Shown here piece by piece: positions 31,162-57,780 of a DNA stretch of 64,000 bases (the first letter of the stretch is position 1; every line of letters starts with the position of its first letter). The notes below the pieces were generated by a model. It was not told the origin of the DNA and searched no databases. It was given only the letters and a program-made list of their open reading frames with translations. The position numbers and the translations under genes were made by a program. Source of the stretch: Bacteroidota bacterium (GTDB taxonomy: Bacteria; Bacteroidota; Bacteroidia; Palsa-948); NCBI GenBank assembly GCA_003164895.1, contig PLUL01000039.1, forward strand, positions 4,307 to 68,306, written 5' to 3'.

Positions 31162-31194
31162 ATAAATAAAAGAAACGATAAAAAACTAAAATAT

Positions 31195-33970: not shown

Positions 33971-34032
33971 TTTATGCAATTTATTTTTCAAAAAAAATTA
34001 AAGAGTGATTTGAATAAATAATTTTTCAATTT

Positions 34033-36347: not shown

Positions 36348-36401
36348 AATAAAACACAAACCAAAAATCAATACTAACACTAAAAACCAAGGAGGCAATT
36401 T

Positions 36402-37462: not shown

Positions 37463-37476
37463 TTGATATAAATCAC
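37463..37476. promoter_or_regulatory. FNR-type box TTGATATAAATCAC
   Basis: TGAT-N4-ATCA core with a canonical TTGAT left half-site, embedded in AAAAG...CTTTT flanks, 229 nt upstream of the module 2 ATG (37705). Confidence 0.45.
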
Positions 37477-38700: not shown

Positions 38701-38748
38701 AAATGACAAAACAAAAAATTAATCATAAGAAAATTAAATAAAAAAAAT

Positions 38749-40188: not shown

Positions 40189-40218
40189 TGCAAAATAATA
40201 AATAGAAATATAACAACA

Positions 40219-41094
40219 ATGAACAATATGAAAATAACCAGAATTACATTAGCAGCAGTTCTTTTCTGCGGAGTTTCATTTGCGCAAGCTCAAAAAGCAG
40301 AAAGCAGTCTTCAATTATCATTTTCTAAGCAAACTGATAATAGTAAAACTATAAGCGCATTAGTGATGGGAAAAAAGAGTGGCGAAAAATTTAAGCCCGC
40401 ATCAAATGCTCACATCAGTTTTTATGCACAGAAAGAAAAAGAATTAGTTCTTCTTTCAAAAACGGTATCCGATGATCGTGGCAAAGCAACATTAACTCTT
40501 CCTAAAGATTTACCATTGGATGCAGATCATTTTTTCGGTATAACTGTAAAAGTTGAAAACGATGATACGTTTGAAAACTCAGAAGAAAAATTAAAATTAA
40601 AGGATGTAAATCTTTCTCTTAAACTTAATCCGCATGACACAGCGAGAGTCGCAACTGCAACTGTTACTGAAATTACCGATGAAGGAACTGAGAAAGCAGT
40701 AAAAGATGTTTCGATTAATTTTTATGTGCAGCGCTTATTTGGAAAAATGCCAGCAGCAGAAGATCACACGGTTAAAACAGATGAAAAGGGTATAGCAGTT
40801 TTTTCTTTTCCTAAAGGAATTCCTGGTGATACTGCTGGAAGTATGACAGTACTTGCTATGATTGAGGATAACGATTCGTATGGAACAGTGGAAAGTAAAA
40901 GTTCCACCAATTGGGGAGTTGTTGTGCCTCTCGAAAAAGATCCGTTTCCTCGAGCTATTTGGGGAGCAAAAGCACAATGGGGAATGATAATCACGCTTAC
41001 AATTCTTTATGGTGGAGTATGGTCGTCATACATCTTCATGGCTTTTCAATTAAGAAAAATAAAAAAAGAAGAAAATTTAACAACCAATAATTAA
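40219..41094 (+). CDS. Uncharacterised periplasmic beta-rich protein with C-terminal membrane anchor, module 2
   Basis: Signal peptide ending AQA, no cofactor motifs. Blocks shared with 35400-36347 include ATATVTEITDEG vs ATATLTEWKD, GIPGDTAGSMTVLAMIEDNDSYGTVES vs IPGEPGGKITIVASVIDNDTYGSLES. C-terminal TM plus basic tail. Confidence 0.6.
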   Translation: MNNMKITRITLAAVLFCGVSFAQAQKAESSLQLSFSKQTDNSKTISALVMGKKSGEKFKPASNAHISFYAQKEKELVLLSKTVSDDRGKATLTLPKDLPLDADHFFGITVKVENDDTFENSEEKLKLKDVNLSLKLNPHDTARVATATVTEITDEGTEKAVKDVSINFYVQRLFGKMPAAEDHTVKTDEKGIAVFSFPKGIPGDTAGSMTVLAMIEDNDSYGTVESKSSTNWGVVVPLEKDPFPRAIWGAKAQWGMIITLTILYGGVWSSYIFMAFQLRKIKKEENLTTNN

Positions 41095-41119
41095 TCACTA
41101 ATACTTAAAAATAAACACA

Positions 41120-41590
41120 ATGAAAACTATTATCACACAAGTAAGCAAAATGAAACTTTCAGGTTTCATTTTAATTGGAGCACTTGCAATTTGCAGTGCG
41201 TTTATTCCAAAGCCAAAGGGAGAAGTAATTAATTTAGTTGGTGGACAGGAAAAATGGGTTGCACCGGCAGATGCTGATAAGAAAACCAATCCGAATGCTT
41301 CTGATCCCAAAAGTCTTGCTACAGGTAAAGACATTTTTATTCAAAAATGTGCTATTTGCCATGGTAAAAAAGGAAAAGGTGATGGACCAAAGAGCGCAGA
41401 ATTAGACAAACCAGTGCCAGATTTTACAAAAGGCGATTTCAGCAAACAAAGCGATGGTGCGATCTTCTGGAAAATTGCCGAAGGAAGAAAACCAATGCCT
41501 TCTTTCAAAAGTGAACTTTCTGAAGTGCAACGCTGGCAGGTAATAATTTATTTAAGAGAACTTGGAAAGACCACTACTTCACAAAAATAA
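41120..41590 (+). CDS. Class I monohaem cytochrome c, module 2
   Basis: CAICHGKKGKGDG, GRKPMPSF, WQVIIYLREL; same family as 36402, 46539 and 53531. Confidence 0.8.
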   Translation: MKTIITQVSKMKLSGFILIGALAICSAFIPKPKGEVINLVGGQEKWVAPADADKKTNPNASDPKSLATGKDIFIQKCAICHGKKGKGDGPKSAELDKPVPDFTKGDFSKQSDGAIFWKIAEGRKPMPSFKSELSEVQRWQVIIYLRELGKTTTSQK

Positions 41591-41659: not shown

Positions 41660-43120
41660 ATGAAAAATTTAAACAAAAAATTAGTGTCTGCCTTTATGAT
41701 GGGGGCATTCATTGTACTGGGGTTGTCGAATTGCAAAAAAAAGGATGAGGTACTTGACTTACCACCCGCACCCGCACCAACACCAGTATTAAATACTGAT
41801 ACTTTGTATTCAGTTCCTGGAACTGCCACACTTCAAGCAATAGGCGGAGCTGCGTGGGATGGTACAATTGAAGGAGTTTGGAATAATGCACCTGCATTAA
41901 ATGTAACCGGTACAGTGCCAGATTTAGGAAATGGAACTTTTACAGGATATGTTGGTAACAGTACTCAAATTAAATTACGTTCCTTATACGATGCGAGCAA
42001 TATTTATTTTCTTTTTGAATTTGCTGCTGACCGTCCGAACGTGCTAAGTGCACAATGGTATTTTAATCCAACAACACATCTTTGGGCGCAGGAAGCTACC
42101 GCTGCCAGTTTAACTAATTTGAATCCTGATGGAAGTTACAGACCTCCTTTTTCACAGGATGAAATTGTAATGATGTTTAATATTTCAGATGCAACATTTA
42201 ATACATTATCTTGTTATGCTGCTTGCCATGTCATGTCTTCGTATGGATATTCAGTTACACCTTCAGGCGGATACATGGCTACAAATGGTCCTAGTGAAAG
42301 ATTAGATGTGTGGAGAATGCGCACGTTTCAGACTATGCCTATGAACCAAGTAAATGACTGTTTTATTGATGATGGTTCAAGCATTGGATTAGGAGAAAGT
42401 GGTGTGTTAGATAAAAATATGGTTCACAGCGATTGGCAGGTAAATAATGGTCCGGCATCTTCTGTACCTCCAAGCTTACAATCACCTGGAGTAGTGGTAT
42501 CAGCACCTACTGCAACATCAAAAGTTTATGCAGCAGATGGAGGATTCAGCAATAAGCAAACATTAAAACTAAGCGGAGGATCAAATCCGGCGAATGCATT
42601 CCCTGCTGCTAATGGAGGAAAAGTATCGGTTCCAATTTGGGTAATAGAAGGTGCTGCCGGAACTAATCCATATAGCAGTAAACAAGGTGCAATCTTTACT
42701 TCAGATACCGGTGCAACAGCAGTTATGGTTATAGGAGTTGATTCTACTACAGGAATTTTACATCTAAAAGATGGAAATACTTTAGATCCTCGAACTTCAA
42801 CATCAGGTACTGCTTATCAGCAAGTAGGAACCGGAGATGGACCAAATTGTATTCCTGGTTCTATTGTTAGTGTATATACCGGTAGTCGTGGTGATGTAAC
42901 ATGTAATGGATTTTGGACAGGATCAGGTTGGAGATTCTTATTCAAACGTGCATTGAAAACAAGTGATAATGTTAATGACGTTGATTTCTCTTCTCTTGGC
43001 AATCAGCCATTTGGTGTTGGCGTAATGTTTAACGGCGCTGATAACGAACATGCTATTGTAGCTGGCTTGACATTGCATTTTGGTCAAAGAGGAAGTGCTC
43101 GTATTAAAAAAACAAAATAA
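41660..43120 (+). CDS. Lipoprotein with ethylbenzene-dehydrogenase-like (EB_dh, DOMON superfamily) haem-binding-type domain
   Basis: Lipobox GLSNC. Segments fit my recollection of the EB_dh family pattern: WNNAPALNV...IKLRSLYDASNIYFLFEF, LDVWRMR, GWRFLFKRALKTSDNVNDVDF, GVGVMFNGADNEH. It contains CYAACH (CX3CH). Confidence 0.5.
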   Translation: MKNLNKKLVSAFMMGAFIVLGLSNCKKKDEVLDLPPAPAPTPVLNTDTLYSVPGTATLQAIGGAAWDGTIEGVWNNAPALNVTGTVPDLGNGTFTGYVGNSTQIKLRSLYDASNIYFLFEFAADRPNVLSAQWYFNPTTHLWAQEATAASLTNLNPDGSYRPPFSQDEIVMMFNISDATFNTLSCYAACHVMSSYGYSVTPSGGYMATNGPSERLDVWRMRTFQTMPMNQVNDCFIDDGSSIGLGESGVLDKNMVHSDWQVNNGPASSVPPSLQSPGVVVSAPTATSKVYAADGGFSNKQTLKLSGGSNPANAFPAANGGKVSVPIWVIEGAAGTNPYSSKQGAIFTSDTGATAVMVIGVDSTTGILHLKDGNTLDPRTSTSGTAYQQVGTGDGPNCIPGSIVSVYTGSRGDVTCNGFWTGSGWRFLFKRALKTSDNVNDVDFSSLGNQPFGVGVMFNGADNEHAIVAGLTLHFGQRGSARIKKTK

Positions 43121-43126
43121 GTTAAT

Positions 43127-43158
43127 GGGTACTGGGATAAATTTTTATCCCAGTACCC
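43127..43158 (+). terminator. Strong hairpin after the EB_dh-like gene (possible terminator or processing site)
   Basis: GGGTACTGGGATA pairs with TATCCCAGTACCC as a 13-bp perfect stem, 7 nt after the stop. No T-tract follows on the plus strand, so a terminator function is uncertain. Confidence 0.4.
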
Positions 43159-43193
43159 AAAACCAAAAACGATTAACAATTAAAATACTCATC

Positions 43194-43595
43194 ATGAAAA
43201 AAGCACTAATATTTATGACTGCAGTGGGCATGTTGTTAATTGCTGTTGTAACAGGTTGTCAAAAAAACGCAACATTTATTTACAAAGCCCCGACAGTTGT
43301 AGTTACTACTCCGGTTTCTTTTAGTAAAAATCTGGTTCCACTTTTTACTGCAAATTGTGCTCTGAGCGGTTGTCATGTATCAGGAGGTCAGACTCCGAAT
43401 TTAACGGCAGCTTCAGCATACGCATCGTTATCAGGCGGCAATTTTTTTAATGTTAGCAATCCGTCAAGCAGCATAATATACGAGCGATTAACAGGAACAC
43501 TTACTCCGGAAATGCCTTTTGGAAAACCCAATAACCCATCCAACATTAATGCTCTGGTATTGGCGTGGATTACACAAGGAGCAAAGAACAATTAG
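43194..43595 (+). CDS. PSCyt-like lipoprotein with CX4CH motif (paralogue of 30739-31161)
   Basis: Start taken at ATG 43194 (MKKALIFMTAVGMLLIAVVTGC, lipobox). Also LVPLFTANCALSGCHVSGGQTPNL...PEMPFG...ALVLAWITQGAKNN. The longer ORF-track start overlaps the upstream gene. Confidence 0.55.
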   Translation: MKKALIFMTAVGMLLIAVVTGCQKNATFIYKAPTVVVTTPVSFSKNLVPLFTANCALSGCHVSGGQTPNLTAASAYASLSGGNFFNVSNPSSSIIYERLTGTLTPEMPFGKPNNPSNINALVLAWITQGAKNN

Positions 43596-43620
43596 GAAAA
43601 AACAATTAAAAAATAATAAA

Positions 43621-44535
43621 ATGAAAAAAAATATAAAACAATTTGCAATCTGGATGCAAATAGGAATAGTTGCCTATTTGCTATTTGCAATTGGTAATAA
43701 TGTCTGCGCACAGGATAGCACCTCAGCTAAATCTGTAGCTAAGATAGAAAGAGTAAGAAATACTTTTCTTGGCAATATGCTTATTGATAATCAAACGGTG
43801 ATGGTGCCAGTTAAAAAAACTTTTGAGTTTACTATTCAGCACCGCTTTGGAACTATCAATAACGGTTATACAGATATGTACGGACTATTTGCCACTGCCA
43901 ACATGCGCTTGGGATGGAATTATACTCCTATTGATAATTTGCAATTAGGTGTTGGAATATGCAAGGAAAATATGCAGTGGGATGGCAGTGTTAAATATGC
44001 AATTACCAAACAAGCTGTATCTCACGGTTGTCCGGTAAGCGTTACTTATTTTGGAGATATGGCGGTGTCAACTCTTCCGCTGAAAGGAAATTTTGCAAAT
44101 GATGCCGACAGAATTTCGTATTTCAATCAATTAATTGTAGCTAGAAAAGTTACAAGTCATTTTTCAGTTCAGGTGTCACCAAGTTTATCTTATTATAATA
44201 ATGTGGCAGGATATATGAGTGCCGAAGGAACTGTTAAACCAACAATGAATAATGCTCAGCTTTCTGTTGCTACAATGGGTTGTTATATGATTACCGGTGG
44301 AATGGGTATTATTGTTGACTACGATCAGCCGCTTACTCAAAACCCAACTAATAATCCATGTCCCAACGTAAGTTTTGGAATTCAGTTTGCAACCATTACT
44401 CACACATTTCAGGTATTTCTTGGAAACTTCCAAGGTATTCTTCAGCAGTCAAATAATTTCTTTAACCAAAATGATTATACACAAAGCAGATATTTAATAG
44501 GATTTAATATTACTAAACGTTGGAATTATTTTTAA
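43621..44535 (+). CDS. Outer-membrane beta-barrel protein (HRFG-motif family), second copy
   Basis: Start taken at ATG 43621 (MKKNIKQFAIWMQIGIVAYLLFAIGNNVCAQ). Also FEFTIQHRFG, RISYFNQLIVARK and C-terminal FNITKRWNYF. Confidence 0.6.
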   Translation: MKKNIKQFAIWMQIGIVAYLLFAIGNNVCAQDSTSAKSVAKIERVRNTFLGNMLIDNQTVMVPVKKTFEFTIQHRFGTINNGYTDMYGLFATANMRLGWNYTPIDNLQLGVGICKENMQWDGSVKYAITKQAVSHGCPVSVTYFGDMAVSTLPLKGNFANDADRISYFNQLIVARKVTSHFSVQVSPSLSYYNNVAGYMSAEGTVKPTMNNAQLSVATMGCYMITGGMGIIVDYDQPLTQNPTNNPCPNVSFGIQFATITHTFQVFLGNFQGILQQSNNFFNQNDYTQSRYLIGFNITKRWNYF

Positions 44536-44660: not shown

Positions 44661-44990
44661 ATGAGTCAACCAAAAACATATTCTCCAACAATGAAGGTGA
44701 AAAATATCAGCCACCTTTTGCAAATGCTTCGATTTGAAGATATGCAAAACACCGGAAGTCAAGAATTACCTCCGGGACAATGCATAGTTCTGGAGCGATT
44801 TGTTGGCAAGGAAAATGTTTCGGAACCAAATTTAAATTTTGGATTAGCTGAAGTAGTTGGAAGTGTGCAGTATGAGATAAACTTTACGCAAGCTGATGTT
44901 GGAAAAACAATTTATTACCGATGCTGTTATATAAGTACTCAGGGTAAAAAAAGTCCTTGGAGTAAAACTCTAACGGTTGTCATAGTTTAG
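44661..44990 (+). CDS. Orphan 109-aa ORF, function unknown (possibly a gene remnant)
   Basis: Open frame only. It has no signal peptide, no recognisable motif and no paralogue in the window, and sits between a hairpin-terminated operon and the regulator pair. Confidence 0.25.
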   Translation: MSQPKTYSPTMKVKNISHLLQMLRFEDMQNTGSQELPPGQCIVLERFVGKENVSEPNLNFGLAEVVGSVQYEINFTQADVGKTIYYRCCYISTQGKKSPWSKTLTVVIV

Positions 44991-45035: not shown

Positions 45036-45761
45036 ATGAGCAAAAAAATTATCTGTAAAAAATGTAGTAACTCAGCATGTTTTATTAAAAAACATTGTTC
45101 ATCCGATTGGTTAAAAAGAATTGAGTTAAAAAAAATTCAAATTGAACATCAGGCGAAGGATATTATTTTCCGTGAAGGCGGTTATATGGAAGGTGTTTAT
45201 TTTATTCAACAGGGAAAAGTAAAAGTGGTAGCAAAAGGGGCCAATAACAAAGAACAAATTGTTAGAATGGCAATTGATGGACAGATATTAGGTCACCGTG
45301 GATCGGGCGATGACAAATACCCAATTAGTGCCATCGCGTTATGCGACACTACGGTTTGCTTTATTGACAACGATACGCTTTACGATGCATTTATGGAAAT
45401 TCCAAAACTTACTTTGCAAATGATGGAATTCTATTCTCGTGAATTGCGTCGAACAGAAATAAGAATGAAATACCTCACCCAGATGAATGTGAAAGAAAAA
45501 ATTGCAGAATCATTACTTTTTCTCAAGCAAGTTTTTGGAATCAAACCTAATGATGGAACTATAAATGTTTGTTTGACACGATGTGAAATTGCAAGTATGA
45601 TTGGTGTTACTGCTGAACAGATTAGTCGAGACATTGGAGTATTTGAAAAGAAAAAACTAATCAAAAAAAAGGGGCGATTTGGAATAAAACTGGTTGATGA
45701 AAATGGATTGCACGATATTGTCAGAAAATATGGGATAGAACAATACGTCGAACAAAGATGA
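45036..45761 (+). CDS. Crp/Fnr family regulator with N-terminal Cys4 cluster (FNR-like)
   Basis: CKKCSNSACFIKKHC (C-x2-C-x4-C-x5-C), conserved VCFID cysteine, recognition helix TAEQISRDI with the FNR-type E-x-x-S-R. Confidence 0.8.
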   Translation: MSKKIICKKCSNSACFIKKHCSSDWLKRIELKKIQIEHQAKDIIFREGGYMEGVYFIQQGKVKVVAKGANNKEQIVRMAIDGQILGHRGSGDDKYPISAIALCDTTVCFIDNDTLYDAFMEIPKLTLQMMEFYSRELRRTEIRMKYLTQMNVKEKIAESLLFLKQVFGIKPNDGTINVCLTRCEIASMIGVTAEQISRDIGVFEKKKLIKKKGRFGIKLVDENGLHDIVRKYGIEQYVEQR

Positions 45762-46477
45762 AAACAATAGTTAGTTGCAACGAGTGTAGTAATACTGTTT
45801 GTTTAATTAAACAGCACTGCCTTCCTATTTGGAAAGAAAAAATTGATGCGAATAAAATCCAAATGCGATACATGGCGGGTGATTATATTTTCAGAGAAGG
45901 AAATAAAGTGTATGGAATATATTTTATCAAGCACGGAAAAGCAAAAGTAATATCAACAGGATTAAACGACAAGGAACAAATTGTTCGACTTGCTGCTAAC
46001 GGACATATATTGGGACATCGAGGTTACGGAGGAGAATCTTATCCTGTGAGCGCAATGGCTTTGTGCGATACATCCGTCTGTTTTATTGATAATGATTCAT
46101 TTTATGATGTGTGTATGAATAATCCTCAGTTCACTATGGAAATGACCATGTTCTATTCTCGCGAACTGCGTAAAGCCGAGATACGATTAAAATATCTTGG
46201 TCAAATGTCTTGCAGAGAAAAAATTGCAGAAGCACTACTTTATTTAAAAGATATTTTTGGAATGGACGAAGAAAAAAAATGTTTGAATGTTTATTTAACC
46301 AGAAAGGAAATTGCAGATATGGTTGGAACGACCTCCACTCAGGTAATCAGAGAACTTCATGTATTGGAAGCGGAAAAACTTATTGCCAAACAGGGAAAAG
46401 GAACACTCTTGCTGATAAACATGCCGGGGTTAGAAAATATTGTCAGCAATTACGAAATGAAACAACAATTTGTGTGA
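45758..46477 (+). CDS. Crp/Fnr family regulator with N-terminal Cys4 cluster, divergent recognition helix
   Basis: ATGA overlap with the previous gene. CNECSNTVCLIKQHC is present, but the recognition helix TSTQVIREL lacks the E and S of the FNR motif. Confidence 0.8.
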   Translation: MKTIVSCNECSNTVCLIKQHCLPIWKEKIDANKIQMRYMAGDYIFREGNKVYGIYFIKHGKAKVISTGLNDKEQIVRLAANGHILGHRGYGGESYPVSAMALCDTSVCFIDNDSFYDVCMNNPQFTMEMTMFYSRELRKAEIRLKYLGQMSCREKIAEALLYLKDIFGMDEEKKCLNVYLTRKEIADMVGTTSTQVIRELHVLEAEKLIAKQGKGTLLLINMPGLENIVSNYEMKQQFV

Positions 46478-46538: not shown

Positions 46539-46961
46539 ATGAAAAAATTTAAAATCCGTAAAGCATCAATGTTGGCAGGCATAGCAACTGTTGTCATCGC
46601 TCTATCATTGGCATTTCAGCAAAACAAAGAATGGAAAGCGCCAGATTCGGCAAAAGACAAAAAGAATCCCATCACTTCGGATGATGCTTCAATTGCTGCC
46701 GGTAAAAAAATTTATGAAAAAGATTGTATTAACTGTCATGGAAAAAAAGGTAAAGGTGATGGCAAGGACGCAGCAAATCAAGATGTAACAGTTGCTGATT
46801 TAACTTCATCCAAAGTTCAATCTCAAACCGACGGAGAAATTTTTTGGAAAGTCAGCGAAGGAAGAAAGCCAATGCCATCAAATAAAAAAGATCATTCTGA
46901 TGAACAACTTTGGCAAACAGTGAATTACCTGCGCACACTTGGTAAGTCAGTAAAAAAGTAA
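46539..46961 (+). CDS. Class I monohaem cytochrome c
   Basis: Signal/anchor peptide, CINCHGKKGKGDG, GRKPMPSN, WQTVNYLRTL. Confidence 0.8.
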   Translation: MKKFKIRKASMLAGIATVVIALSLAFQQNKEWKAPDSAKDKKNPITSDDASIAAGKKIYEKDCINCHGKKGKGDGKDAANQDVTVADLTSSKVQSQTDGEIFWKVSEGRKPMPSNKKDHSDEQLWQTVNYLRTLGKSVKK

Positions 46962-46986
46962 ATAATGGTACAAAAATAAATACAAG

Positions 46987-48204
46987 ATGAAAAAATCAAT
47001 TTTGCTTTTCGGATTTATTGGGGGAATGTTTTTATTTCCATTCAATGCAAATATATTTGCTCAATCAGGAACTGATTCTACGGTTATTAAGTTGGCACAG
47101 GAAGTAAATTCTCTGAAGGCAGGAGAAAGCCATTTTTTGGTAGTTGGACTTACTACTTTCGGGTTTGTGAATTCTTCAACCACTACAAATGGAATCAAGC
47201 AAAAACCATCTTCTACAAATACATTTGATGCAAATCATTATGAATTTAGTCCAATGTTTTTGTGGAGGCATGGAAAAAATCTTCTTCTTGAATTTGAGCC
47301 ATCGTTTGACGGCAATCAAATTGGTGTGAACTGGGCTTGCGCATCTTATTTTGTTACTCCCGGATTGATCGTTCGTGGAGGTTATTTTGTTTTGCCGTTT
47401 GGAATGTATAACAAACGCCTTGCTGCCGGATGGATTGACAAAGTTGCTACCGATCCAATTGGCGTGGCTGATGCTCCTCCGGCAAGCGATTGGGGAGTTG
47501 AAGCAGAAGGCGGTCTTCCGCTTGGTTCCATGAAATGCAGTTATGATATTGCGATTACAACAGGATATCAGATGCTTCACGACAAATTGCAAGATGGTGC
47601 ATTACAAAATCCGAATGGATCAGGATTGACTGATAACAACAACAATAAAATGGTGAGCGGACGTTTTGCGTTGCTTCCATTTTCAAATTCATCTCTTGAA
47701 ATAGGCGTGTCTGGAATTTTTGGAAAAGTTGGTGATACAAATGATTCCCTCTACAAAGATGCAACCACCACCATGTATGCCGGCGATATTACTTATTTAG
47801 CGGACATACGACCTTTTCTTTTGAATATAAAAGGACAGTATAATGTTATCAATGTAAATAAAGGAACATTTCCTAATCCTGGTGATTCTACCAAAACATA
47901 TTCTTTCTCTAATACTTCAACTTCTTATTTCGGACAAATTTCTCTGCGACCAGTTTCTCTTCGTAATAAAATTATTAGAAACTTTGAACTTGCATTTCGT
48001 TATGCAAATTACATAACTCCAAAAGGCTCTTTGTGGGAACAGAATTCAACTCAAACAAGTATTGGTTTGGATTATTGGTTAAGCTGGAGGTCAATTATCA
48101 AACTTACCTATGAAACAGTAAATTCAAATTATGCTTCAATGGGAATTTCGGGAGATAAAACAAAAACAAATTATGTTTATCTGCAATACTCAGTTCAATT
48201 TTGA
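46987..48204 (+). CDS. Porin-like outer-membrane beta-barrel
   Basis: Signal peptide ending FAQ, 405 aa, alternating strand pattern, C-terminal YLQYSVQF. Paralogue at 53973-55229. Confidence 0.6.
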   Translation: MKKSILLFGFIGGMFLFPFNANIFAQSGTDSTVIKLAQEVNSLKAGESHFLVVGLTTFGFVNSSTTTNGIKQKPSSTNTFDANHYEFSPMFLWRHGKNLLLEFEPSFDGNQIGVNWACASYFVTPGLIVRGGYFVLPFGMYNKRLAAGWIDKVATDPIGVADAPPASDWGVEAEGGLPLGSMKCSYDIAITTGYQMLHDKLQDGALQNPNGSGLTDNNNNKMVSGRFALLPFSNSSLEIGVSGIFGKVGDTNDSLYKDATTTMYAGDITYLADIRPFLLNIKGQYNVINVNKGTFPNPGDSTKTYSFSNTSTSYFGQISLRPVSLRNKIIRNFELAFRYANYITPKGSLWEQNSTQTSIGLDYWLSWRSIIKLTYETVNSNYASMGISGDKTKTNYVYLQYSVQF

Positions 48205-48217
48205 AAAATTTATAACG

Positions 48218-48493
48218 ATGAAAAAAATAAATATAAAAAACCTGATTGTTGCTTGCTTACTATTTTCTATTCCGGTATCAACTATAATCAGCGGATGCGC
48301 TGCAAGTGCAAAAGTAGCTGCCAAAACCGGATCACAACTTTGGTCAGAAAATTGCCGCCGATGTCATAATACTCCTCCTGCCACGGCTTTTTCAGCAGAT
48401 CAGTGGGAAACAATTGGATTGCACATGCAAAGCCGAGCGTTGCTCACCGAAACGGAAAAAAATAAAATAGTTCAGTTTCTGAAAGGAGAGTAA
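48218..48493 (+). CDS. Mini (~70-aa mature) CXXCH lipoprotein, putative monohaem cytochrome
   Basis: Start taken at ATG 48218; lipobox IISGC. GSQLWSENCRRCHNTPP...DQWETIGLHMQSRALLTETEKNKIVQFLK is paralogous to 55282-55551. Confidence 0.6.
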   Translation: MKKINIKNLIVACLLFSIPVSTIISGCAASAKVAAKTGSQLWSENCRRCHNTPPATAFSADQWETIGLHMQSRALLTETEKNKIVQFLKGE

Positions 48494-48568
48494 TTGTGAA
48501 AATTTTTAAAGCACTTAATAATAGAATGAGAGAAATGAATAAAGATAATAGTCGTCAGCTAATTGTTT

Positions 48569-49030
48569 ATGCAACTTGAAAAAGAAATACACCAAGTCAG
48601 ACCATTCAGGAATGATTATCATAAAGCCACAGTTAATCTTATTTATTCCGGCAAATGGGTTTTGCAGTTTGTTACGGATTTTCTGAAGCCATATAAATTA
48701 ACTCTCCAGCAATATAATATTCTTCGCATTTTACGTGGAAAATATCCTGAAGCTATTACGGTAACATTTATTCGTGATAGAATGCTTGATCGGATGTCAG
48801 ACGCGTCAAGGTTAGTCGAACATCTCAGAAAAAAAGAATTGGTTATAAGAACTACTGCAGGTTCTGACAGGCGCAGAATGGATGTTGTAATTACTGAAAA
48901 AGGACTTGCCTTGCTTGAGGAAATTGAAAAAGAAAATGATCAAATGGATAAACGGCTTGCGACCTTAGATGAACAAGAAGTTGTTCAATTGAATTTTCTC
49001 CTCGATAAACTCAGGAATATCTTGCCTTGA
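48569..49030 (+). CDS. MarR family transcriptional regulator (paralogue of 36936-37424)
   Basis: MQLEKEIHQVRPFRNDYHKA... The first ~70 nt are nearly identical to the other copy. Start taken at ATG 48569 rather than the upstream TTG. Confidence 0.8.
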   Translation: MQLEKEIHQVRPFRNDYHKATVNLIYSGKWVLQFVTDFLKPYKLTLQQYNILRILRGKYPEAITVTFIRDRMLDRMSDASRLVEHLRKKELVIRTTAGSDRRRMDVVITEKGLALLEEIEKENDQMDKRLATLDEQEVVQLNFLLDKLRNILP

Positions 49031-49511: not shown

Positions 49512-52346
49512 ATGAAAAAGTTAATCTTTACATTAGTCTCGCTCGCGAGTGCAGTGCTGATTATTTTCAGCACGTTCTCCTTGTCTCATTCAAGGAGTCA
49601 GAAATTAGTTCCCTCCGCCAGATCGGGAGGACCAGCATCAGGACCGGATGGTGGGCAATCATGTACTGCTTGCCATTCCTCGTATTCGAGTTCATTTGCA
49701 AAAACAGGATGGATCACTTCAGATATTCCTGGAAATGCCTATGTGCCTGGAGCAACTTATAATATTACTGTTACAGTAAATTCTAAAGGTTACAAACATG
49801 GCTTTGAAACAAGCTGTCAAACAGCAACAGCATGTGTAGGAACCTTTATCTCGAATGATTCAACACAAGTACTTTATGCTGGAACAAATTCATGGATTAC
49901 ACACTTAGATAGCATTACTGCCATGCAACGTGTTCCACAAATTGTTCCTTGCCAAAAAGGTTTCTATGGAACTCATCATAATCAAAATTCCCATTCTTGG
50001 ACATTCCAATGGACAGCTCCAACTGCTGGCACAGGCACAGTAACAATTTATTCAGCAATGGTTGCAGCAAATGGAAATGGAAGCGATAATTTAGCTGCCT
50101 ATCCACAAACATCTTGGAAAGGTGATTCTGTATTTACTTCTTCACTTGCACTTACAGAAAATACTACAGCAAATTTTTCAAGTATTGTAAAACCATGCGG
50201 AAGTTCCAGTAATGGTTCGGCAACAGTTAACGCTACCTTTGGAACGGGTCCTTATACATATTTATGGACACCTTCTGCTCAAACAACTTCTAATGCTACG
50301 GGTTTGGCAGCAGGTAATTACACTGTTAGTGTTCATGATGCTTTATCTGCAAGTATGAATTTGCATTTAACATTACAAAACGGCGTAAGTGCAATAATAA
50401 ATGATCAAAATACACCAAGTTGCCCAGGTGCAATTGCCACACATGCTGTGCTTGCTTTGGGTGGAACAACTCCTTATACATATTTATGGAGTGGTGGTGG
50501 ACAAACCACTTCATCGGTTACTGGTTTAATTCCTGGAACATATTCAGTTACAATTACGGATGCGGCTGCTTGTTCCACTATATATACTTTTAATGCAACA
50601 GATAAACAAGCTTTTTTTACTTATTTCTATAACTGGCAGGATAGTAATGTAACTTGCAAAGGCGGAAACAACGGCTATGCAAAAATACAAACTCGAAATA
50701 ATATTACCGGTTCTTTAGCTTACTCATGGAATTCCGGTCAAACAACGCAGACAGTAACTAACTTAGCAGCAGGTACATATACCTGCACTGTAGTAAACAC
50801 AGGTACTGTTACCGGATGTACAACAACGGTAACTACTACATCCACAGTTACCATTACTGAACCGGCAGCGGCACTTACTGCATCAATAACAGCGCAAAAC
50901 AACGGTTGTAATAATGCAAATAACGGCACTGCAACAGCTTCTGGTTTTGGCGGAACTGCTCCTTATTCGTATGCTTGGAGTAATGGCTCAACAACTTTTC
51001 CAGTGCAAACCACACCAACGGCTACTGGTTTAGCACCAGGAAATTATTCTTGTACTGTAACTTGTTACGGTACATATGTAACTTCGCAAGATGTTCCTCC
51101 ACTACAAAGAGCAACTTCAAAAGTTGGTTCGTGTTATTCAATAGCTACTGTAACAATCACAAATCCCACAGCCCTTACTTCAACGGTTACCAGTACTAAT
51201 GCAAGTTGCAATATTTCTAATGGAACTGCAAGCGTTAGTGCATCGGGTGGAGCAGGAAGTTATACATATTTTTGGTCTAACTCACATACAACTGCAAGTA
51301 TAACAGGACTTAATGCTAATTCATACGGTGTTATTGTAACAGATGCCAACGGTTGCACTTCTGCAGGTGTTGCCAATGTTATTAACAATGGTGCTCCTAC
51401 TGCAACTGTAACACCAACTAATGCGTTGTGTCATGGCGGTAATGGCAGTGCAACGGTAGCAGCGAGCGGTGGAACCGGAGCATTCTCTTATGTATGGAGC
51501 AGCGGTTCAAGTACATCGGCAGCAAATAATCTTGCATCAGGAAATTACACAGTAACCGTTACCGATGCAAGTAGTTGCTCAACAACAACAACAGTAACTA
51601 TTACTCAGCCAACCGCTGTTACAGCATCCGCTTCAGTAACTGCAAATGTTAGTTGCAATGGTGGAAATGATGGCAGTGCAGCAGTAACAGCAGGGGGCGG
51701 TACTCCAACTTATAATTATGCTTGGAGCAATGGTTCACCAAATCCAAGTGCCGGGCAGCTTACTGTTGGAGGTTATACAGTAACTATAACTGATGCCAAC
51801 GGTTGTACAAAAATTGCTTCTGTAACAATTACTCAACCTATTGTTTTAACTGCTACAATGAGTTCTACTGACCAAACAGTTGCATCTCCTGCAAATGGAA
51901 CTGCAACAGCAAATCCATCCGGCGGATCAGGAGCATACTTATATGCTTGGAGTACAACTCCAGTGCAAACTACATCCACGGCTACGGATCTTGATGATGG
52001 AACTTATTCAGTAACTGTTACTGATGCTCATGGTTGTACACTTACAAATACCGTAGTTGTTCTCAGTACCGTGGGTATTAATACGATTGATTTGGAAAAT
52101 TCAGTTTCAGTGTTTCCTAATCCAAACCTCGGAGAGTTTAATATTACTCTGAATGCTTCTGTGAGCAATAATTATGTGATTGAAGTGCGAAATTTGCTAG
52201 GACAAGTAATGTATAACGAAACATTGACAAACTTTAGTGGTAATTACATTAAACATCTTGATGTAAAAACTTATGGCGGAGGAATTTATTTCTTGAATAT
52301 CCGAAGCAATGAAAATCAAGTGGTGCGCAAGGTGGTTGTGAACTAA
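49512..52346 (+). CDS. Large T9SS-sorted surface protein: CXXCH Reeler/DOMON-like N-domain + ~8 SprB repeats
   Basis: Signal peptide, GGQSCTACHSSY, WTFQWTAPTAGTGTVTIYSAMVAANGNG (same domain as 32165-32992). About 8 repeats follow of the type C-x-G-x-x-NG-x-A...GG-x-x-PY-x-Y-x-WS...GTYSVTVTDA-x-GC. T9SS tail VFPNPNLGEFNITL...GIYFLNIRSNENQVVRKVVVN. Confidence 0.7.
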   Translation: MKKLIFTLVSLASAVLIIFSTFSLSHSRSQKLVPSARSGGPASGPDGGQSCTACHSSYSSSFAKTGWITSDIPGNAYVPGATYNITVTVNSKGYKHGFETSCQTATACVGTFISNDSTQVLYAGTNSWITHLDSITAMQRVPQIVPCQKGFYGTHHNQNSHSWTFQWTAPTAGTGTVTIYSAMVAANGNGSDNLAAYPQTSWKGDSVFTSSLALTENTTANFSSIVKPCGSSSNGSATVNATFGTGPYTYLWTPSAQTTSNATGLAAGNYTVSVHDALSASMNLHLTLQNGVSAIINDQNTPSCPGAIATHAVLALGGTTPYTYLWSGGGQTTSSVTGLIPGTYSVTITDAAACSTIYTFNATDKQAFFTYFYNWQDSNVTCKGGNNGYAKIQTRNNITGSLAYSWNSGQTTQTVTNLAAGTYTCTVVNTGTVTGCTTTVTTTSTVTITEPAAALTASITAQNNGCNNANNGTATASGFGGTAPYSYAWSNGSTTFPVQTTPTATGLAPGNYSCTVTCYGTYVTSQDVPPLQRATSKVGSCYSIATVTITNPTALTSTVTSTNASCNISNGTASVSASGGAGSYTYFWSNSHTTASITGLNANSYGVIVTDANGCTSAGVANVINNGAPTATVTPTNALCHGGNGSATVAASGGTGAFSYVWSSGSSTSAANNLASGNYTVTVTDASSCSTTTTVTITQPTAVTASASVTANVSCNGGNDGSAAVTAGGGTPTYNYAWSNGSPNPSAGQLTVGGYTVTITDANGCTKIASVTITQPIVLTATMSSTDQTVASPANGTATANPSGGSGAYLYAWSTTPVQTTSTATDLDDGTYSVTVTDAHGCTLTNTVVVLSTVGINTIDLENSVSVFPNPNLGEFNITLNASVSNNYVIEVRNLLGQVMYNETLTNFSGNYIKHLDVKTYGGGIYFLNIRSNENQVVRKVVVN

Positions 52347-53530: not shown

Positions 53531-53956
53531 ATGAAAACAACTATTCAACCCCCAGTACTCATGACACTCCTTGTTATATGCGGAGCAATTTTGTTTATGT
53601 CATCAACCTTAAAAAAAGTTCAGCAAACAACACCATGGGTGGCACCTTCGTCGGCTGATACAATTAAAAATCCATTGAAAGGCAATGCACAAGCGGCAGA
53701 TGAAGGAAAAAAATTATACGCTCAGAATTGTGCAGTATGCCACGGCGACAAAGGAAAGGGAGATGGAATTGCAGCGGCAGGATTAAATCCTAAACCGGCA
53801 AATCACACTTCAGAAAAAGTTCAAATGCAAACTGACGGAGCAATTTTTTGGAAAATGACTACAGGAAGACCACCAATGGCATCGTATGCAACAACATTAA
53901 GCGTAACACAACGCTGGCAGTTGGTGAATTTTATGCGCACTCTAAAGAAAAAATAA
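53531..53956 (+). CDS. Class I monohaem cytochrome c
   Basis: CAVCHGDKGKGDG, GRPPMASY, WQLVNFMRTL; same family as 36402, 41120 and 46539. Confidence 0.8.
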   Translation: MKTTIQPPVLMTLLVICGAILFMSSTLKKVQQTTPWVAPSSADTIKNPLKGNAQAADEGKKLYAQNCAVCHGDKGKGDGIAAAGLNPKPANHTSEKVQMQTDGAIFWKMTTGRPPMASYATTLSVTQRWQLVNFMRTLKKK

Positions 53957-53972
53957 TTATCTAACTATAAAT

Positions 53973-55229
53973 ATGAAACCTATGAAAACACTTATTAAAA
54001 CAATCACAATAGGAGGATTCATGTTATTCAACTTTGCAACAGTTAGCAAAGCGCAAGACTCAACACAAATAGATAAGCCCAATAAACCCGGTGGAAGTAA
54101 CACGAAGTTTTTACTTGCCGGAAAAGCGCAGATGTCATGCACAAATACAATTACTCAAATGCCCGGAAGCCCAGATGTAAAGGCAAACACTTTTTTTCCG
54201 GATGCGTTTATGTTGATGCCATTAGTGAAAGTAAATAACAAACTTTTTTTAGATGCACAGATTGAAGTTGACGCTAATGGAATTGGAGGTGGGTCGTCAA
54301 TTAATCTGAATGAATTAATTGTCTATTATAGAGTCGCTCCCGCTCTTAGCATTTTTGCAGGAAACTTTAGTCCTAAATATGGTTTGTATGCAGGTGTGTT
54401 GGATGATTTTACCAATCGTTATTGCACTGACCCAATAGGAATGAGCAGAGGACCAAGTACACAAACAGGAATTGGTATTCAAGGTGGAGTGCAGGCAGGA
54501 TATTCTAAATTTAATTACCAATTGTATGTTGCAAACGGACCTCAAATGACGGTGGATAGCACAACTAAAGGAAGCAACAATCTTACAGGACAATTGACCT
54601 ACGGAAATTACTCAGATAATAATATGAATAAAGCAATAGGAGGATCAATCGGTTTTCTTCCTTTTTCAAATTCTTCTCTTCAAATTGATGTATCTGGACA
54701 ATGGGCTGGAAAAGTAGGTACTACTGGAACTCCTTTTGAAAACATCAGCAGTACATCATTTGCCGCAGATCTGAATTACTATCATGTGTTTAGTCCTATT
54801 ATGGTAAGAGTGTTGGCAGAATATAATAGTACAACTACAAAAAATTATAATTATCCTTGGTATTCTGATTCTACAAAATCATCTTATTTAATACCGACGT
54901 TTAATAATCAATTCAGCGGATGGTTTTGCGGAGCTACTGTGCGCGCTTCGGGATCAGGACATGCATTTCTAAGCAACCTTGAATTAGGTGCACGTGTTGG
55001 CGGCTACACTCCACCAAGCTATGTTAATGATAAAGATAAATATACTAATTATCCGAATCAGACGGGATTACAGTCACCTTGGGGAGAAAATCCTGAAACG
55101 CAAACCACTGTGTGTCTCACTTATTGGTTAACCTGGAAGACACCGCTTAATATAGCTTATGATGTTCTAAAGATGTCCAATGGACCAACTGTTACTACTT
55201 ATACAGCAAGATTGATTTACTTTTTCTAA
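53973..55229 (+). CDS. Porin-like outer-membrane beta-barrel (paralogue of 46987-48204)
   Basis: Signal peptide ending KAQ, 418 aa, shared blocks (TDPIGM vs TDPIGV; GGSIGFLPFSNSSLQIDVSG vs SGRFALLPFSNSSLEIGVSG), C-terminal ARLIYFF. Confidence 0.6.
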   Translation: MKPMKTLIKTITIGGFMLFNFATVSKAQDSTQIDKPNKPGGSNTKFLLAGKAQMSCTNTITQMPGSPDVKANTFFPDAFMLMPLVKVNNKLFLDAQIEVDANGIGGGSSINLNELIVYYRVAPALSIFAGNFSPKYGLYAGVLDDFTNRYCTDPIGMSRGPSTQTGIGIQGGVQAGYSKFNYQLYVANGPQMTVDSTTKGSNNLTGQLTYGNYSDNNMNKAIGGSIGFLPFSNSSLQIDVSGQWAGKVGTTGTPFENISSTSFAADLNYYHVFSPIMVRVLAEYNSTTTKNYNYPWYSDSTKSSYLIPTFNNQFSGWFCGATVRASGSGHAFLSNLELGARVGGYTPPSYVNDKDKYTNYPNQTGLQSPWGENPETQTTVCLTYWLTWKTPLNIAYDVLKMSNGPTVTTYTARLIYFF

Positions 55230-55281
55230 ATAATTAACTACGACTTAAAGAAAAAAAGAAATCATAAAAAAAATTAAAAAT

Positions 55282-55551
55282 ATGAAAACCACAAAACATA
55301 TCTGCATTGGTGTAATTGTACTTATTATCGGTGTAATCATTGGCAACGGATGCAAAGTTCCTGAATCTATTGCCAATAAATCAGGAGCGCAACTGTGGGG
55401 AGAGAATTGCAATCGCTGCCACAATGCACCCGATCCCAAAACATATAGTGATGATCAATGGGATGCAGCTACCGAACACATGAGGCAGAAAGCGATTCTT
55501 ACCAATACCGAAATTAATAAGATCAGAGTGTTTCTTAAATCAGCAAATTAA
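55282..55551 (+). CDS. Mini CXXCH lipoprotein, putative monohaem cytochrome (paralogue of 48218-48493)
   Basis: Lipobox IGNGC; GAQLWGENCNRCHNAPDP...DQWDAATEHMRQKAILTNTEINKIRVFLK. Confidence 0.6.
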   Translation: MKTTKHICIGVIVLIIGVIIGNGCKVPESIANKSGAQLWGENCNRCHNAPDPKTYSDDQWDAATEHMRQKAILTNTEINKIRVFLKSAN

Positions 55552-55552
55552 A

Positions 55553-55879
55553 ATGTTAAACGGTAATCAATATTTGTACACCATGTTTGACCAAAACAAT
55601 AAAAAAAATAGTCGGATTGATTTGTCCGAACCATTGCAGGCAATAAGAGAATCTATCATTTCGATCAGGCGGACAATAGATTTCATGAATTCACGCAAGC
55701 ACAAAAATGATAAGGAAGAACAACCCATGTTTGAAGATATTCATAACCTGCTTTCATCTCTCAGCCATGTGTTGAAACACAGTATTCATCACGCAAAAAA
55801 CAAGGATGAAATTCTTCAGGTAAAACAAACACACGATTTGGTAAATGAAGCGTGCTCGGAGTTAAAACAAATATTATAA
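55553..55879 (+). CDS. Small cytoplasmic helical His-rich protein, function unknown
   Basis: The start codon lies 1 nt after the previous stop (TAA-A-ATG). No signal peptide; His-rich stretch HNLLSSLSHVLKHSIHHAKN. Confidence 0.4.
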   Translation: MLNGNQYLYTMFDQNNKKNSRIDLSEPLQAIRESIISIRRTIDFMNSRKHKNDKEEQPMFEDIHNLLSSLSHVLKHSIHHAKNKDEILQVKQTHDLVNEACSELKQIL

Positions 55880-55946: not shown

Positions 55947-56405
55947 ATGCGCAAAAAAATCTTAACAGCAATTGCCGTATGTACATTATTCCTAATAGTA
56001 AAGTGCGGCACCGACACTCAACCTACCACCACAACGCAATCAACGGTAGCCAAAAAGGATACAGTTGATAATGGAATCGGTCAGTTTAAAGATGTGAAGT
56101 TAACTCACCCATTGGATCAAGGAATGGCTGGCAAAGGCGAAGATATTTACAAAGCAAAATGTATTGCTTGTCATAAATTAACTACCGAAAAATTAGTTGG
56201 TCCGGGTTGGAAAGGAGTTACCGACAGAAGAACTCCCGAGTGGATCATGAATTTTATTACCAACACCAATGTGATGCTGGATAGCGACTTAGTTGCTCAG
56301 CAATTAATGGTTGTTTGTGTGGCAAGAATGCCTAATCAGAATGTGAACAACGATGACGCTCGTTTTGTACTTGAGTTCTTGAGAAAGAATGACGGAAAAA
56401 ATTAA
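55947..56405 (+). CDS. Lipoprotein class I cytochrome c (distinct subfamily)
   Basis: Lipobox LIVKC, CIACHK haem motif, distal Met in ARMPNQN. Confidence 0.75.
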   Translation: MRKKILTAIAVCTLFLIVKCGTDTQPTTTTQSTVAKKDTVDNGIGQFKDVKLTHPLDQGMAGKGEDIYKAKCIACHKLTTEKLVGPGWKGVTDRRTPEWIMNFITNTNVMLDSDLVAQQLMVVCVARMPNQNVNNDDARFVLEFLRKNDGKN

Positions 56406-56484
56406 CACTGCGAATTACGAATTGGCAAATTACTAATCATTCGTAATTAGAAGATTGGTAATTCGTAGAACTAAAAATGATAGT

Positions 56485-57780
56485 ATGATGAAGTCTAAAA
56501 ATTTCTGGATCAGTTTATCACTTCTCAACCTATGTATTGTAACTGTGCTGGGCGTTATTTTGAGAAGCAAAGCGCTTTTTGATCTGCCTATCATTGATTA
56601 CAACCATTTACTAAACGCTCATTCGCATTTTGCTTTTGGCGGATGGGTAACACTTGCGCTGATGGTGTTACTGATGCACACGTTATTGACCGAATCGCAG
56701 AAACAAAAATCTATTTACCAGTTTGTTTTCTGGAGCATCTTTGTTACGGTATGGGGATTGCTTTTTACATTTCCTTTTTCGGGATATAATACATGGTCAA
56801 CCTACATTTCAACTCTTTTTACTTTCACCACATATATTTTTAGCTGGGTTTTTATCCGCGATGTGCTGAAAGCAAAAGTGAGCAAAACAGTTCTTATTTT
56901 ATCCATCGCATCCGTTTTTTGCATGGTATTGTCTTCGGCAGGTTCTTTCACATTGGGATATTTGTTTGCCACCAAATCGTTGAAAGCAATTTTGTATCGC
57001 GATGCATTGTTCTCGTATTTGCATTTGCAGTACAATGGTTTTTTTACACTCGCTGTCTTTGCGTTGCTCTTTCAAAAGATAGAATCAAAGTTTTCGGTCG
57101 AAGTTCAAAAAAAGATATATCGTTTTGCTTTGGTACTTGTAATTTCAATTTTGCCATCCATGTTTCTTTCTTATCACTGGCACGATCCAAGTTTTCTTTT
57201 TCACGTAATTGCTTATATCGGCAGCGCTCTTTTATTAATCAGTTTTGGTTTGTTTATTCCTGTATTGAAGGCAATTTTAAAACTGTATAAATCGGTTCCC
57301 ATCTTATTTAAATTTATCGGAGGACTATCGCTTGGAGCTTTCATGCTCAAAATGTTTTTGCAAAGTTTCACCATAATTAATTTTTTTGGCAACTTGGTTT
57401 TTGGCGATCGCCCCATCATTATGGGATTTCTGCATTTGGTGTTTCTTGGTTTTGTTTCACTTTTTCTGCTTGCCTATTTTGCAAAAACCGGATTGCTCAA
57501 TACCGAAAAAACATTTACAAAAGTTTCGCTGGTTGTGTTTGCAATGGGAGCGTTGCTTAACGAAACTCTTTTGTGGGCGCAGGGTTTTGCCGCCATGCTT
57601 ATTCAAAGCAGCGATATATTCCCATGGCTGCTTTGGGGAGCCGGCATTTGGCTCTTTATCGGCGCTGCTTTAATTGGCATTGCCCGAATTATTAGTGTGC
57701 CAAGTGTGGTGGCAGAAAAGAAAAAGGCACAAGTGCGCGAGGGCTTTTCGCCTTCAATTCCCGAACTGAAAAGATTTTAG
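56485..57780 (+). CDS. Polytopic membrane protein (>=10 TM) with conserved His motifs; possibly NnrS-like
   Basis: Start taken at ATG 56485. Hydrophobic throughout, with NAHSHFAFGGW and GFLHLVFLGF motifs that faintly recall the H-x-H...FG motifs of NnrS haem/copper membrane proteins. Family assignment is not secure. Confidence 0.4.
   Translation: MMKSKNFWISLSLLNLCIVTVLGVILRSKALFDLPIIDYNHLLNAHSHFAFGGWVTLALMVLLMHTLLTESQKQKSIYQFVFWSIFVTVWGLLFTFPFSGYNTWSTYISTLFTFTTYIFSWVFIRDVLKAKVSKTVLILSIASVFCMVLSSAGSFTLGYLFATKSLKAILYRDALFSYLHLQYNGFFTLAVFALLFQKIESKFSVEVQKKIYRFALVLVISILPSMFLSYHWHDPSFLFHVIAYIGSALLLISFGLFIPVLKAILKLYKSVPILFKFIGGLSLGAFMLKMFLQSFTIINFFGNLVFGDRPIIMGFLHLVFLGFVSLFLLAYFAKTGLLNTEKTFTKVSLVVFAMGALLNETLLWAQGFAAMLIQSSDIFPWLLWGAGIWLFIGAALIGIARIISVPSVVAEKKKAQVREGFSPSIPELKRF

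Follow-up and report, generated by a model that had tools for sequence, protein, structure and literature searches.

A conserved gene triad encoding two monohaem cytochromes and an outer-membrane porin, a possible minimal redox module, in Bacteroidota and other phyla

In a 64,000-nucleotide stretch of contig PLUL01000039.1 (assembly GCA_003164895.1) from a Bacteroidota bacterium, called here, at its full length, the window, two sets of three adjacent genes encode, in order, a class I monohaem cytochrome c, a predicted outer-membrane porin and a minimal second monohaem cytochrome (the mini-cytochrome). Gene structure, fold, family relationships, synteny and natural fusions mark this triad as a real, conserved module. 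It is apparently undescribed so far, no description having been found in the published literature. We put at roughly 0.45 the probability that the triad is a self-contained, minimal porin-cytochrome redox module that acts on a solute permeating the porin.

Triad A (46539-48493) and triad B (53531-55551) are each made up of three co-directional open reading frames (ORFs) on the + strand (Table 1), with gaps of 25 and 13 nucleotides (nt) in triad A and of 16 and 52 nt in triad B. An earlier note on this DNA, made from the letters alone, had described triad A as three tightly spaced genes, encoding a cytochrome c of 140 amino acids (aa), a 405-aa barrel ending in Phe and a lipoprotein with a single CRRCH motif and about 70 mature residues, and had seen the same triad again at the position of triad B. 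The ORF map agrees with the spacing (25 and 13 nt) and with the first two products, and the recurrence extends to all three genes: the cytochromes are 50% identical (E 5e-37), the barrels 29% identical over their whole length (E 7e-39) and the mini-cytochromes 51% identical (E 1e-25). By these comparisons, triads A and B are true paralogue sets. The lipoprotein does have the motif and a lipobox, with 65 mature residues and not 70, and the single CXXCH in each cytochrome accords with the note's count of one haem per component. The start of mini-cytochrome A is placed at 48218 in preference to the mechanical ORF start of 48131; it is conserved in 74 homologues and used in the gene calls of soil contigs 96% identical to the window.

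The three families were followed through two sets of loci, 80 from genomes of Bacteroidota (one genome per species; Chitinophagaceae, Mucilaginibacter and others) and 80 from metagenomes, the latter retrieved with distant barrels that are about 25-30% identical to those of the window and that lie in DNA of 50-69% GC. Counting only loci with room on the contig beside the barrel, the gene for the mini-cytochrome comes immediately after that for the barrel in 77 of 77 Bacteroidota loci and in 68 of 69 distant metagenome loci, and the barrel is immediately preceded, in the same orientation, by the class I cytochrome in 60 of 70 Bacteroidota loci (with 6 more where it is nearby) and in 55 of 60 metagenome loci, counts that are phylogenetically non-independent, many of the soil contigs being close relatives. 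The arrangement, recurring in the same order in 80 genome and 80 metagenome loci, is far beyond chance, and since GC content (34-69%) and phyla are widely spread, inheritance by a single clade is ruled out. The earlier note had named a lack of linkage in other genomes as something that would speak against its reading; what was found is near-obligate synteny across phyla. Cultured carriers of the triad include Hydrotalea flava, H. sandarakina, Niastella vici, Sediminibacterium magnilacihabitans, Puia dinghuensis and a Flavitalea sp., and the distant homologues with a named source come from, among others, Planctomycetes, Verrucomicrobia and Methylocaldum.

Natural fusions tie the first two genes together more directly. 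Nine of the top 150 representatives of the barrel family consist of a signal peptide, a class I cytochrome c, a Pro/Ala-rich linker, a coiled coil and the barrel, in that order. One of these proteins (P0266) matches the barrel of the window at E 3e-48 and, through its N-terminal domain, the 140-aa cytochrome at 34% identity and E 8e-28. A fused locus (L094) retains the mini-cytochrome downstream. Long N-terminal coiled coils are found in distant barrels, some of which bear a cytochrome at the far end of the coil; no C-terminal fusion of barrel and mini-cytochrome was found among the 150 representatives and 108 homologues of the mini-cytochrome. The near-obligate linkage and the occurrence of natural fusions are strong comparative grounds for holding that the three proteins function jointly, with both cytochromes probably on the periplasmic side.

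The AlphaFold 2 (AF2) model of barrel A, made from a 52-sequence alignment, has 16 strands after a short N-terminal helix at residues 31-41 (predicted local distance difference test, pLDDT, 84; predicted template modelling score, pTM, 0.80), which gives the strand number that the earlier note had wished to see predicted. Foldseek matches the model to PorB, OprO/OprP (4rjw and 2o4v; template modelling score relative to the query, TMq, 0.58), Omp32 and DcaP. On this model, barrel A can confidently be taken for a trimer-type 16-stranded porin like PorB, OprO/OprP and DcaP. Barrels A and B have no Pfam or NCBIfam match, Pfam giving nothing for them even at E <= 1; the 52 aligned homologues gave no Pfam family, and a sequence search of PDB with the barrel profile gave no match. 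Every one of 859 close homologues is named 'hypothetical' and is without a Pfam domain. A full HMMER search of 1.84 billion representatives at E <= 1e-3 gathers a family of 984 clusters, of which the distant barrels are homologous to the clade of the window by hhalign (probability 100%, E 6e-76) and also by hmmsearch. Several of the distant members score 24-29 bits against PF07396, above its gathering threshold of 20.9, and because they do so, the barrel appears, by profile comparison, to be a divergent branch of the Porin_O_P family. The comparison with the Porin_O_P hidden Markov model proposed in the earlier note is thus without a match for the barrels of the window and above threshold for distant members of their family.

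Conservation, mapped onto the predicted barrel topology, is highest in the constriction loop L3 and in the periplasmic turns T2, T4 and T7, the extracellular loops being mostly short or variable. L3 reads PFG.Y.KRLAAGWI.K...DP, with a short helix within it, and is analogous to L3 of classical porins. Its conservation therefore makes a specific narrow pore likelier and a haem domain inside the barrel less likely. The turns read PG (T2), P.SNSSL (T4, with a mean conservation of 0.93) and L.WR (T7). Strongly conserved periplasmic turns are uncommon among porins, and those of the triad barrels therefore fit a docking surface. The conserved charges of the lumen, as approximately assigned, are 12 acidic (7 E and 5 D) against 8 basic (5 R and 3 K), and by the same approximate assignment an Arg/Lys ladder of the OprP type is absent from the conserved residues. 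About 10% of the barrel homologues (P0259, P0266, P0268, P0269, P0287, P0424, P0425, P0452 and P0457 are carriers) carry, in predicted extracellular loops, inserts rich in His or in His and Glu (GHGHG or EEGGHEEE, for example), a composition that suggests metal binding.

Mini-cytochrome A, with its lipobox ISGC, is modelled by AF2 as three helices around the CXXCH (pLDDT 89). Its best fold match is SorB (2blf_B; probability 0.89, TM 0.46-0.50, E 0.5), followed by monohaem domain 2 of PgcA. Sequence matches to SorB, the C-terminus of TorC and DHC are weak and far below family cutoffs: against the SorB family of NCBIfam, NF052246, the mini-cytochromes reach 14-18 bits with a cutoff of 93 bits, so that the resemblance is one of fold only, and against the sequences of PDB the mini-cytochrome has only matches of E >= 0.1 (DHC and fragments of cbb3 CcoP). 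On the model, then, the protein is a minimal SorB-like monohaem cytochrome with a domain of about 55 residues. Its invariant residues are the lipobox Cys, K36, G38, L41-W42, E44-N45, C46..C49-H50-N51, P53, W63, H69-M70, A74, T77 and E80. The tether between anchor and domain is flexible and spans 10-38 residues in the mini-cytochromes. A connection with sulfite or with a molybdoenzyme, to which the SorB-like fold and MoaA at 58791 might point, was considered and rejected, there being no SorA-type or other molybdopterin catalytic subunit in the window.

The lipobox Cys is invariant in 54-74 Bacteroidota homologues of the mini-cytochrome. Surface lipoproteins of Bacteroidota carry an acidic export signal after this Cys; the residues at that place in Bacteroidota mini-cytochromes (KASQQ and AENQK, for instance) contain no such signal, and because it is absent, an anchor facing the periplasm is the likelier. 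A large soil clade differs: its mini-cytochromes lack the Cys and have a plain signal peptide of the AxA type. Lipidation, as predicted from these signals, is clade-specific; adjacency to the barrel is universal.

The 140-aa protein matches PF13442 with 53 bits and PF00034 with 46.7 bits (cutoffs 27 and 21.3) and has a CXXCH and a distal Met region. Its best sequence relatives in PDB are c552-type cytochromes and ActE, a subunit of alternative complex III (ACIII) (6btm_E, E 1.5e-8). Since its homologues mostly carry cleavable signal peptides, of the type cut by signal peptidase I and ending in ..AQ (67 of 72 lack a lipobox), the protein is probably soluble in the periplasm.

Cyc2 is the fused Fe(II) oxidase of Acidithiobacillus, Mariprofundus and the Gallionellaceae. 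It has been described as a monohaem cytochrome on a predicted 16-strand OprO/P-like porin, which Fe2+ is proposed to enter, with the motif AXPXFAR[Q/K][T/Y] lying 5 residues before CXXCH and PXL lying 4 residues after it (PMC8406198). The triad resembles it in having a single haem, a 16-strand OprO/OprP-like barrel, a class I cytochrome as the next carrier and a substrate that would be expected in the pore. However, Cyc2 is one polypeptide of at least 365 aa with CXXCH near its N-terminus, whereas the triad is three genes, with no CXXCH in the barrels. The fusions within the triad family join to the barrel a class I cytochrome of about 100 aa, by way of a long linker and coiled coil, and not a short N-terminal haem peptide, and the triad has the mini-cytochrome in addition. 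Neither motif is present in either cytochrome, the consensus of the mini-cytochrome being K.G.QLW.ENCQRCHNTPSPSTFS and the 140-aa cytochrome reading YEKDCINCHGKKGKGDG. Motifs apart, the authors of FeGenie report that haem-less porins score like true Cyc2. By architecture and motifs, the triad is not a member of the Cyc2 family. Of the label 'split Cyc2' given earlier, what survives is the barrel fold and the one haem; the motifs are missing, and the cytochrome found fused is of the 140-aa type and not the mini-cytochrome.

With MtrCAB, MtoAB/PioAB and OmaB-OmbB-OmcB the triad shares the order periplasmic cytochrome, barrel, lipoprotein cytochrome, and also quinone-linked modules of the inner membrane. 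Conduits of the Mtr or porin-cytochrome (Pcc) type, however, have 8-12 haems per cytochrome and barrels of 20-26 strands around a haem wire, whereas in the triad each cytochrome has a single haem motif and the barrel, of 16 strands, has a constriction loop. The triad is therefore not a Mtr-type or Geobacter Pcc-type conduit, failing on both haem number and barrel size; the likeness to the latter drawn in the earlier note extends to the clustered gene order and no further. 'Porin-cytochrome-like logic', the broader wording used there, is fair as a functional analogy and does not amount to membership in either group.

Other porins offer partial parallels. ExtI of Geobacter, annotated as Porin_O_P, lies in the ExtHIJKL... 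cytochrome cluster and is needed for selenite and tellurite reduction (PMC5877670). By its description it is like the triad barrel in being a porin within a cytochrome cluster, with a small adjacent protein (ExtJ) and a redox role towards soluble species; it differs in its partners, which are multihaem cytochromes, a rhodanese-like protein and a Rieske/cytochrome b. OprO/OprP and DcaP have the same fold as the barrel (TMq up to 0.58), and DcaP begins with a similar coiled coil in the periplasm, but obligate cytochrome partners exist only on the side of the triad, and OprO/OprP have an Arg ladder and a Lys cluster where the conserved lumen of the triad barrel appears, approximately, net acidic. 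Individual parts point elsewhere, the mini-cytochrome to SorB by fold and the 140-aa cytochrome to c552 and ActE by sequence. By analogy, the triad as a whole would work most like Cyc2 with its periplasmic cytochrome, in split form and with an extra small cytochrome.

In the solute-permeant mechanism put forward at the outset, a small, soluble, redox-active solute would pass the selective Porin_O_P-like channel and, at the periplasmic mouth of the barrel, give an electron to the mini-cytochrome or take one from it. In Bacteroidota, a lipid anchor and short tether would keep the mini-cytochrome at this side of the barrel. The soluble class I cytochrome, which in some lineages is covalently joined to the N-terminal coiled coil of the barrel, would shuttle electrons and connect to quinone-linked complexes of the inner membrane (DsrOP/NrfCD-like or ACIII) or to terminal oxidases. 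Electrons cannot tunnel across the membrane in a system with two single haems and a constricted barrel of 16 strands; contact with the outside is therefore plausible only through a permeant that diffuses, a conclusion that Keffer et al. also reached for Cyc2 (PMC8406198). Our best guess for the solute is a metal ion, Fe2+ or some other; it might also be a small organic shuttle. A metal cation such as Fe2+ is favoured because of the precedent of Cyc2, the net-acidic lumen and scattered hints of metal, namely the multicopper oxidase context in Methylocaldum, a CopR/SilR-like regulator and the His/Glu-rich loops.

Several points weigh against this mechanism. Physical docking, haem loading, localisation, substrate and the direction of electron flow are what we infer from the comparisons above. 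The links to metal are weak, the match of the regulator being below cutoff and His-rich loops being a minority feature, and lumen-facing residues were assigned by hydrophobic periodicity, which is approximate. To our knowledge, the cultured carriers (Hydrotalea, Niastella, Sediminibacterium, Puia, Flavitalea and Methylocaldum) are not known iron oxidisers. The signature motifs of Cyc2 are, as described, absent from both cytochromes. Given the unlipidated soil clade, a lipid anchor in the outer membrane is not universal. The triad stands by itself in most genomes of Bacteroidota, no oxidase or quinone modules being adjacent to it, and where iron-sulfur (FeS) and NrfD proteins are partners, they suit outward electron flow equally well.

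Outward flow is the substance of one rival. By analogy with ExtI of Geobacter, needed as it is for the reduction of selenite and tellurite (PMC5877670), quinol electrons might pass by way of DsrOP/NrfCD-like proteins or ACIII and the class I cytochrome to reduce a soluble oxidant that enters the porin, perhaps a chelate of Fe(III) or Mn(III), Cu(II), a quinone or humic shuttle, or an oxyanion (selenite, tellurite). FeS/NrfD and ActA-like genes precede the triad in several phyla, as they do in the island of the window (described below), Crp/Fnr regulators flank triad A, and HemN and cbb3-assembly genes neighbour some Bacteroidota loci. However, the module itself contains no reductase, the search for FNR-type boxes found none in front of either triad, and class I cytochromes with His/Met ligation usually have a high potential, limiting the acceptors they could serve. 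We hold this direction to be unlikely, and yet a serious alternative. We doubt a good deal more that the barrel serves as scaffold only, a structural anchor that places two cytochromes in the periplasm (as coiled-coil porins such as DcaP might suggest) and whose pore has no redox relevance. The long N-terminal coiled coils of distant members, some with a cytochrome at the far end, would fit such a role, as would the flexible tethers of the mini-cytochromes, but the strongest conservation in the family lies in the constriction loop, which one would not expect of an anchor, and the triad is kept in the window even though the coiled coil has there been nearly lost, to the helix at 31-41.

Slightly more doubtful still is a true conduit across the outer membrane, of the kind formed by MtrCAB or OmaB-OmbB-OmcB; the mini-cytochrome would then be inserted into the barrel or run right through it, and electrons would pass to surface cytochromes or minerals. 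The gene order of the triad mirrors that of porin-cytochrome clusters; the island of the window holds quinone modules and many periplasmic cytochromes; and two proteins there with a CXXCH and a tail for the type IX secretion system (T9SS) could be the surface cytochromes. Against this, the barrel, with its 16 strands and conserved L3, and the single haem of each protein leave no room for a chain of haems, and electron-transfer distance limits preclude tunnelling between haems at opposite mouths of a barrel. Haems so placed would be too far apart, the same point that has been made for Cyc2 (PMC8406198). Moreover, the mini-cytochrome has no acidic signal for lipoprotein export and is a plain secreted protein in some clades, and the T9SS-tailed CXXCH proteins do not recur beside the triad in the other 80 Bacteroidota loci. 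Finally, the barrel might be an ordinary nutrient or phosphate porin that stands beside genes for electron carriers by chance, with no coupling. Its fold is a generic porin fold, and distant members match Porin_O_P, but the near-obligate synteny across several named phyla and 34-69% GC, the gene fusions and the lack of an Arg/Lys ladder leave this reading strongly disfavoured and hardly credible. A role in the uptake of haem or iron was also considered and rejected, there being no TonB-dependent or haem-transport neighbours in the 160 loci.

Both triads lie within an island of + strand genes at 29.5-58 kb of the window, which includes three Crp/Fnr and two MarR regulators (Table 1). The order of the tandem Crp/Fnr pair followed by triad A is kept in the 96%-identical soil contigs, as is the position of a small ORF (44661-44990, 109 aa). 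A second small ORF (55553-55879, 108 aa) begins 2 nt past the end of the gene for mini-cytochrome B and encodes a product that lacks a signal peptide; neither ORF has a family match. The MarR regulators at 36936-37424 and 48563-49030 are close paralogues, both starting MQLEKEIHQV.PFRNDYHKA. Since MarR genes, quinone modules and triads are all duplicated, the island seems to have grown by duplication of modules.

Each quinone module has an FeS protein of the twin-arginine translocation (TAT) type (best match DsrO, 200.6 and 191.6 bits), an NrfD/DsrP-like membrane subunit, an unclassified protein of 291-315 aa and a monohaem cytochrome c; no catalytic molybdopterin subunit is present in either. 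EB_dh proteins are haem-binding and ethylbenzene-dehydrogenase-like. One of the two DUF5777 barrels is preceded by a 486-aa EB_dh protein and the other by a small PSCyt1-like protein without CXXCH. The two T9SS-tailed proteins have one N-terminal CXXCH each (CTSCH at residue 40; CTACH at residue 51), within the choice-of-anchor V domain, and may be exported monohaem cytochromes of the cell surface. The pair formed by a 152-aa cytochrome and a 441-aa polytopic membrane protein recurs within a few kb of the triad, in either orientation, in about 14 of the 80 Bacteroidota loci, including that of Flavitalea sp. BT771. The membrane protein contains His and has no significant match in Pfam, NCBIfam or PDB.

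Table 1. Coordinates of the two triads and of other features of the surrounding island in the window.
Feature	Position	Strand	Description
Triad A, gene 1	46539..46961	+	class I monohaem cytochrome c, 140 aa; CINCH; PMP Met-ligand region
Triad A, gene 2	46987..48204	+	predicted 16-stranded outer-membrane porin, 405 aa; C-terminal Phe (...YSVQF)
Triad A, gene 3	48218..48493	+	mini monohaem cytochrome c lipoprotein, 91 aa; Cys27 lipobox; CRRCH
Triad B, gene 1	53531..53956	+	class I cytochrome c, 141 aa; CAVCH; Pfam PF00034 and PF13442 matches
Triad B, gene 2	53973..55229	+	porin, 418 aa; C-terminus YFF; aligns within barrel alignment A1
Triad B, gene 3	55282..55551	+	mini-cytochrome lipoprotein, 89 aa; GNGC lipobox; CNRCH; weak family matches like mini-cytochrome A
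Two DUF5777 outer-membrane barrel modules	30739-32103, 41660-44535	+	PF19089, E ~1e-66
Two T9SS-tailed (Por_Secre_tail) proteins	32165-32992, 49512-52346	+	NCBIfam choice-of-anchor V domain
Two paralogous quinone modules	33062-36854, 37705-41590	+	FeS and NrfD/DsrP-like subunits
Two tandem Crp/Fnr-family regulators	45036..46477	+	PF00027 and PF13545; directly upstream of triad A; putative association
MarR-family regulator	48563..49030	+	NCBIfam MarR-type matches; directly downstream of triad A
Cytochrome c (152 aa) and unclassified polytopic membrane protein (441 aa)	55947..57780	+	recurrent pair beside the triad

Distant triads in unrelated phyla have recurrent partners as well: FeS and NrfD proteins upstream (6 loci), an ActA-like pentahaem protein (3 loci), a dihaem cytochrome-EB_dh protein (4 loci) and cupredoxins (18 loci). 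These are the same families as in the island of the window. The occasional neighbours in Bacteroidota are HemN and genes for the assembly of cbb3 or cytochrome oxidase. A neighbouring OmpR-type response regulator has its best match in the CopR/SilR/CztR subfamily, below cutoff. In Methylocaldum sp. BRCS4 (L163, SEJA01000020.1) the triad adjoins two multicopper oxidases, an OEP efflux protein and a fragment of a cation ATPase, with DUF2231 and TraF genes also beside it, surroundings that look like a mobile metal-resistance island.

Searches for regulatory sites in the window gave little. A scan for sigma-70 promoters and terminators, ill-suited to Bacteroidota promoters, found no more sites than in shuffled sequence. 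The FNR box TTGAT-N4-ATCAA, with one mismatch allowed, has 11 matches where 8.9 are expected. Exact palindromes of the form KTGAT-N4-ATCAM number 2, against 0.88 expected, which is not above chance; these are GTGATTTAAATCAC (30484-30497) and TTGATATAAATCAC (37463-37476), each in the promoter region of a different island operon, neither of them a triad. Neither search found a box upstream of either triad.

It is possible, if unlikely, that the triad represents an all-monohaem oxidoreductase of the outer membrane that spans phyla and acts on dissolved Fe(II), other metal ions or small shuttles, a split analogue of Cyc2 and perhaps a distant relative of it. The barrel family, about 1,000 clusters at 50% identity, extends over Bacteroidota, Planctomycetota, Verrucomicrobiota, Gammaproteobacteria and soil lineages, and the uniformly 'hypothetical' names of the 859 close homologues amount to an annotation gap. 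Few marker genes exist for the microbial redox cycling of iron, metals and humic substances (Cyc2, Mto/Mtr, Pcc), and most heterotrophic bacteria of soils and lakes escape them. The triad is also a tractable system, with two one-haem proteins, several cultured carriers and natural fusions, and it could address how a single haem at the mouth of a porin exchanges electrons with a permeating solute, as for Cyc2. If the proposal is true, an outer-membrane redox module operates in ordinary heterotrophs of soil and freshwater, and the triad would add a testable candidate marker for the redox cycling of iron, metals and humic substances.

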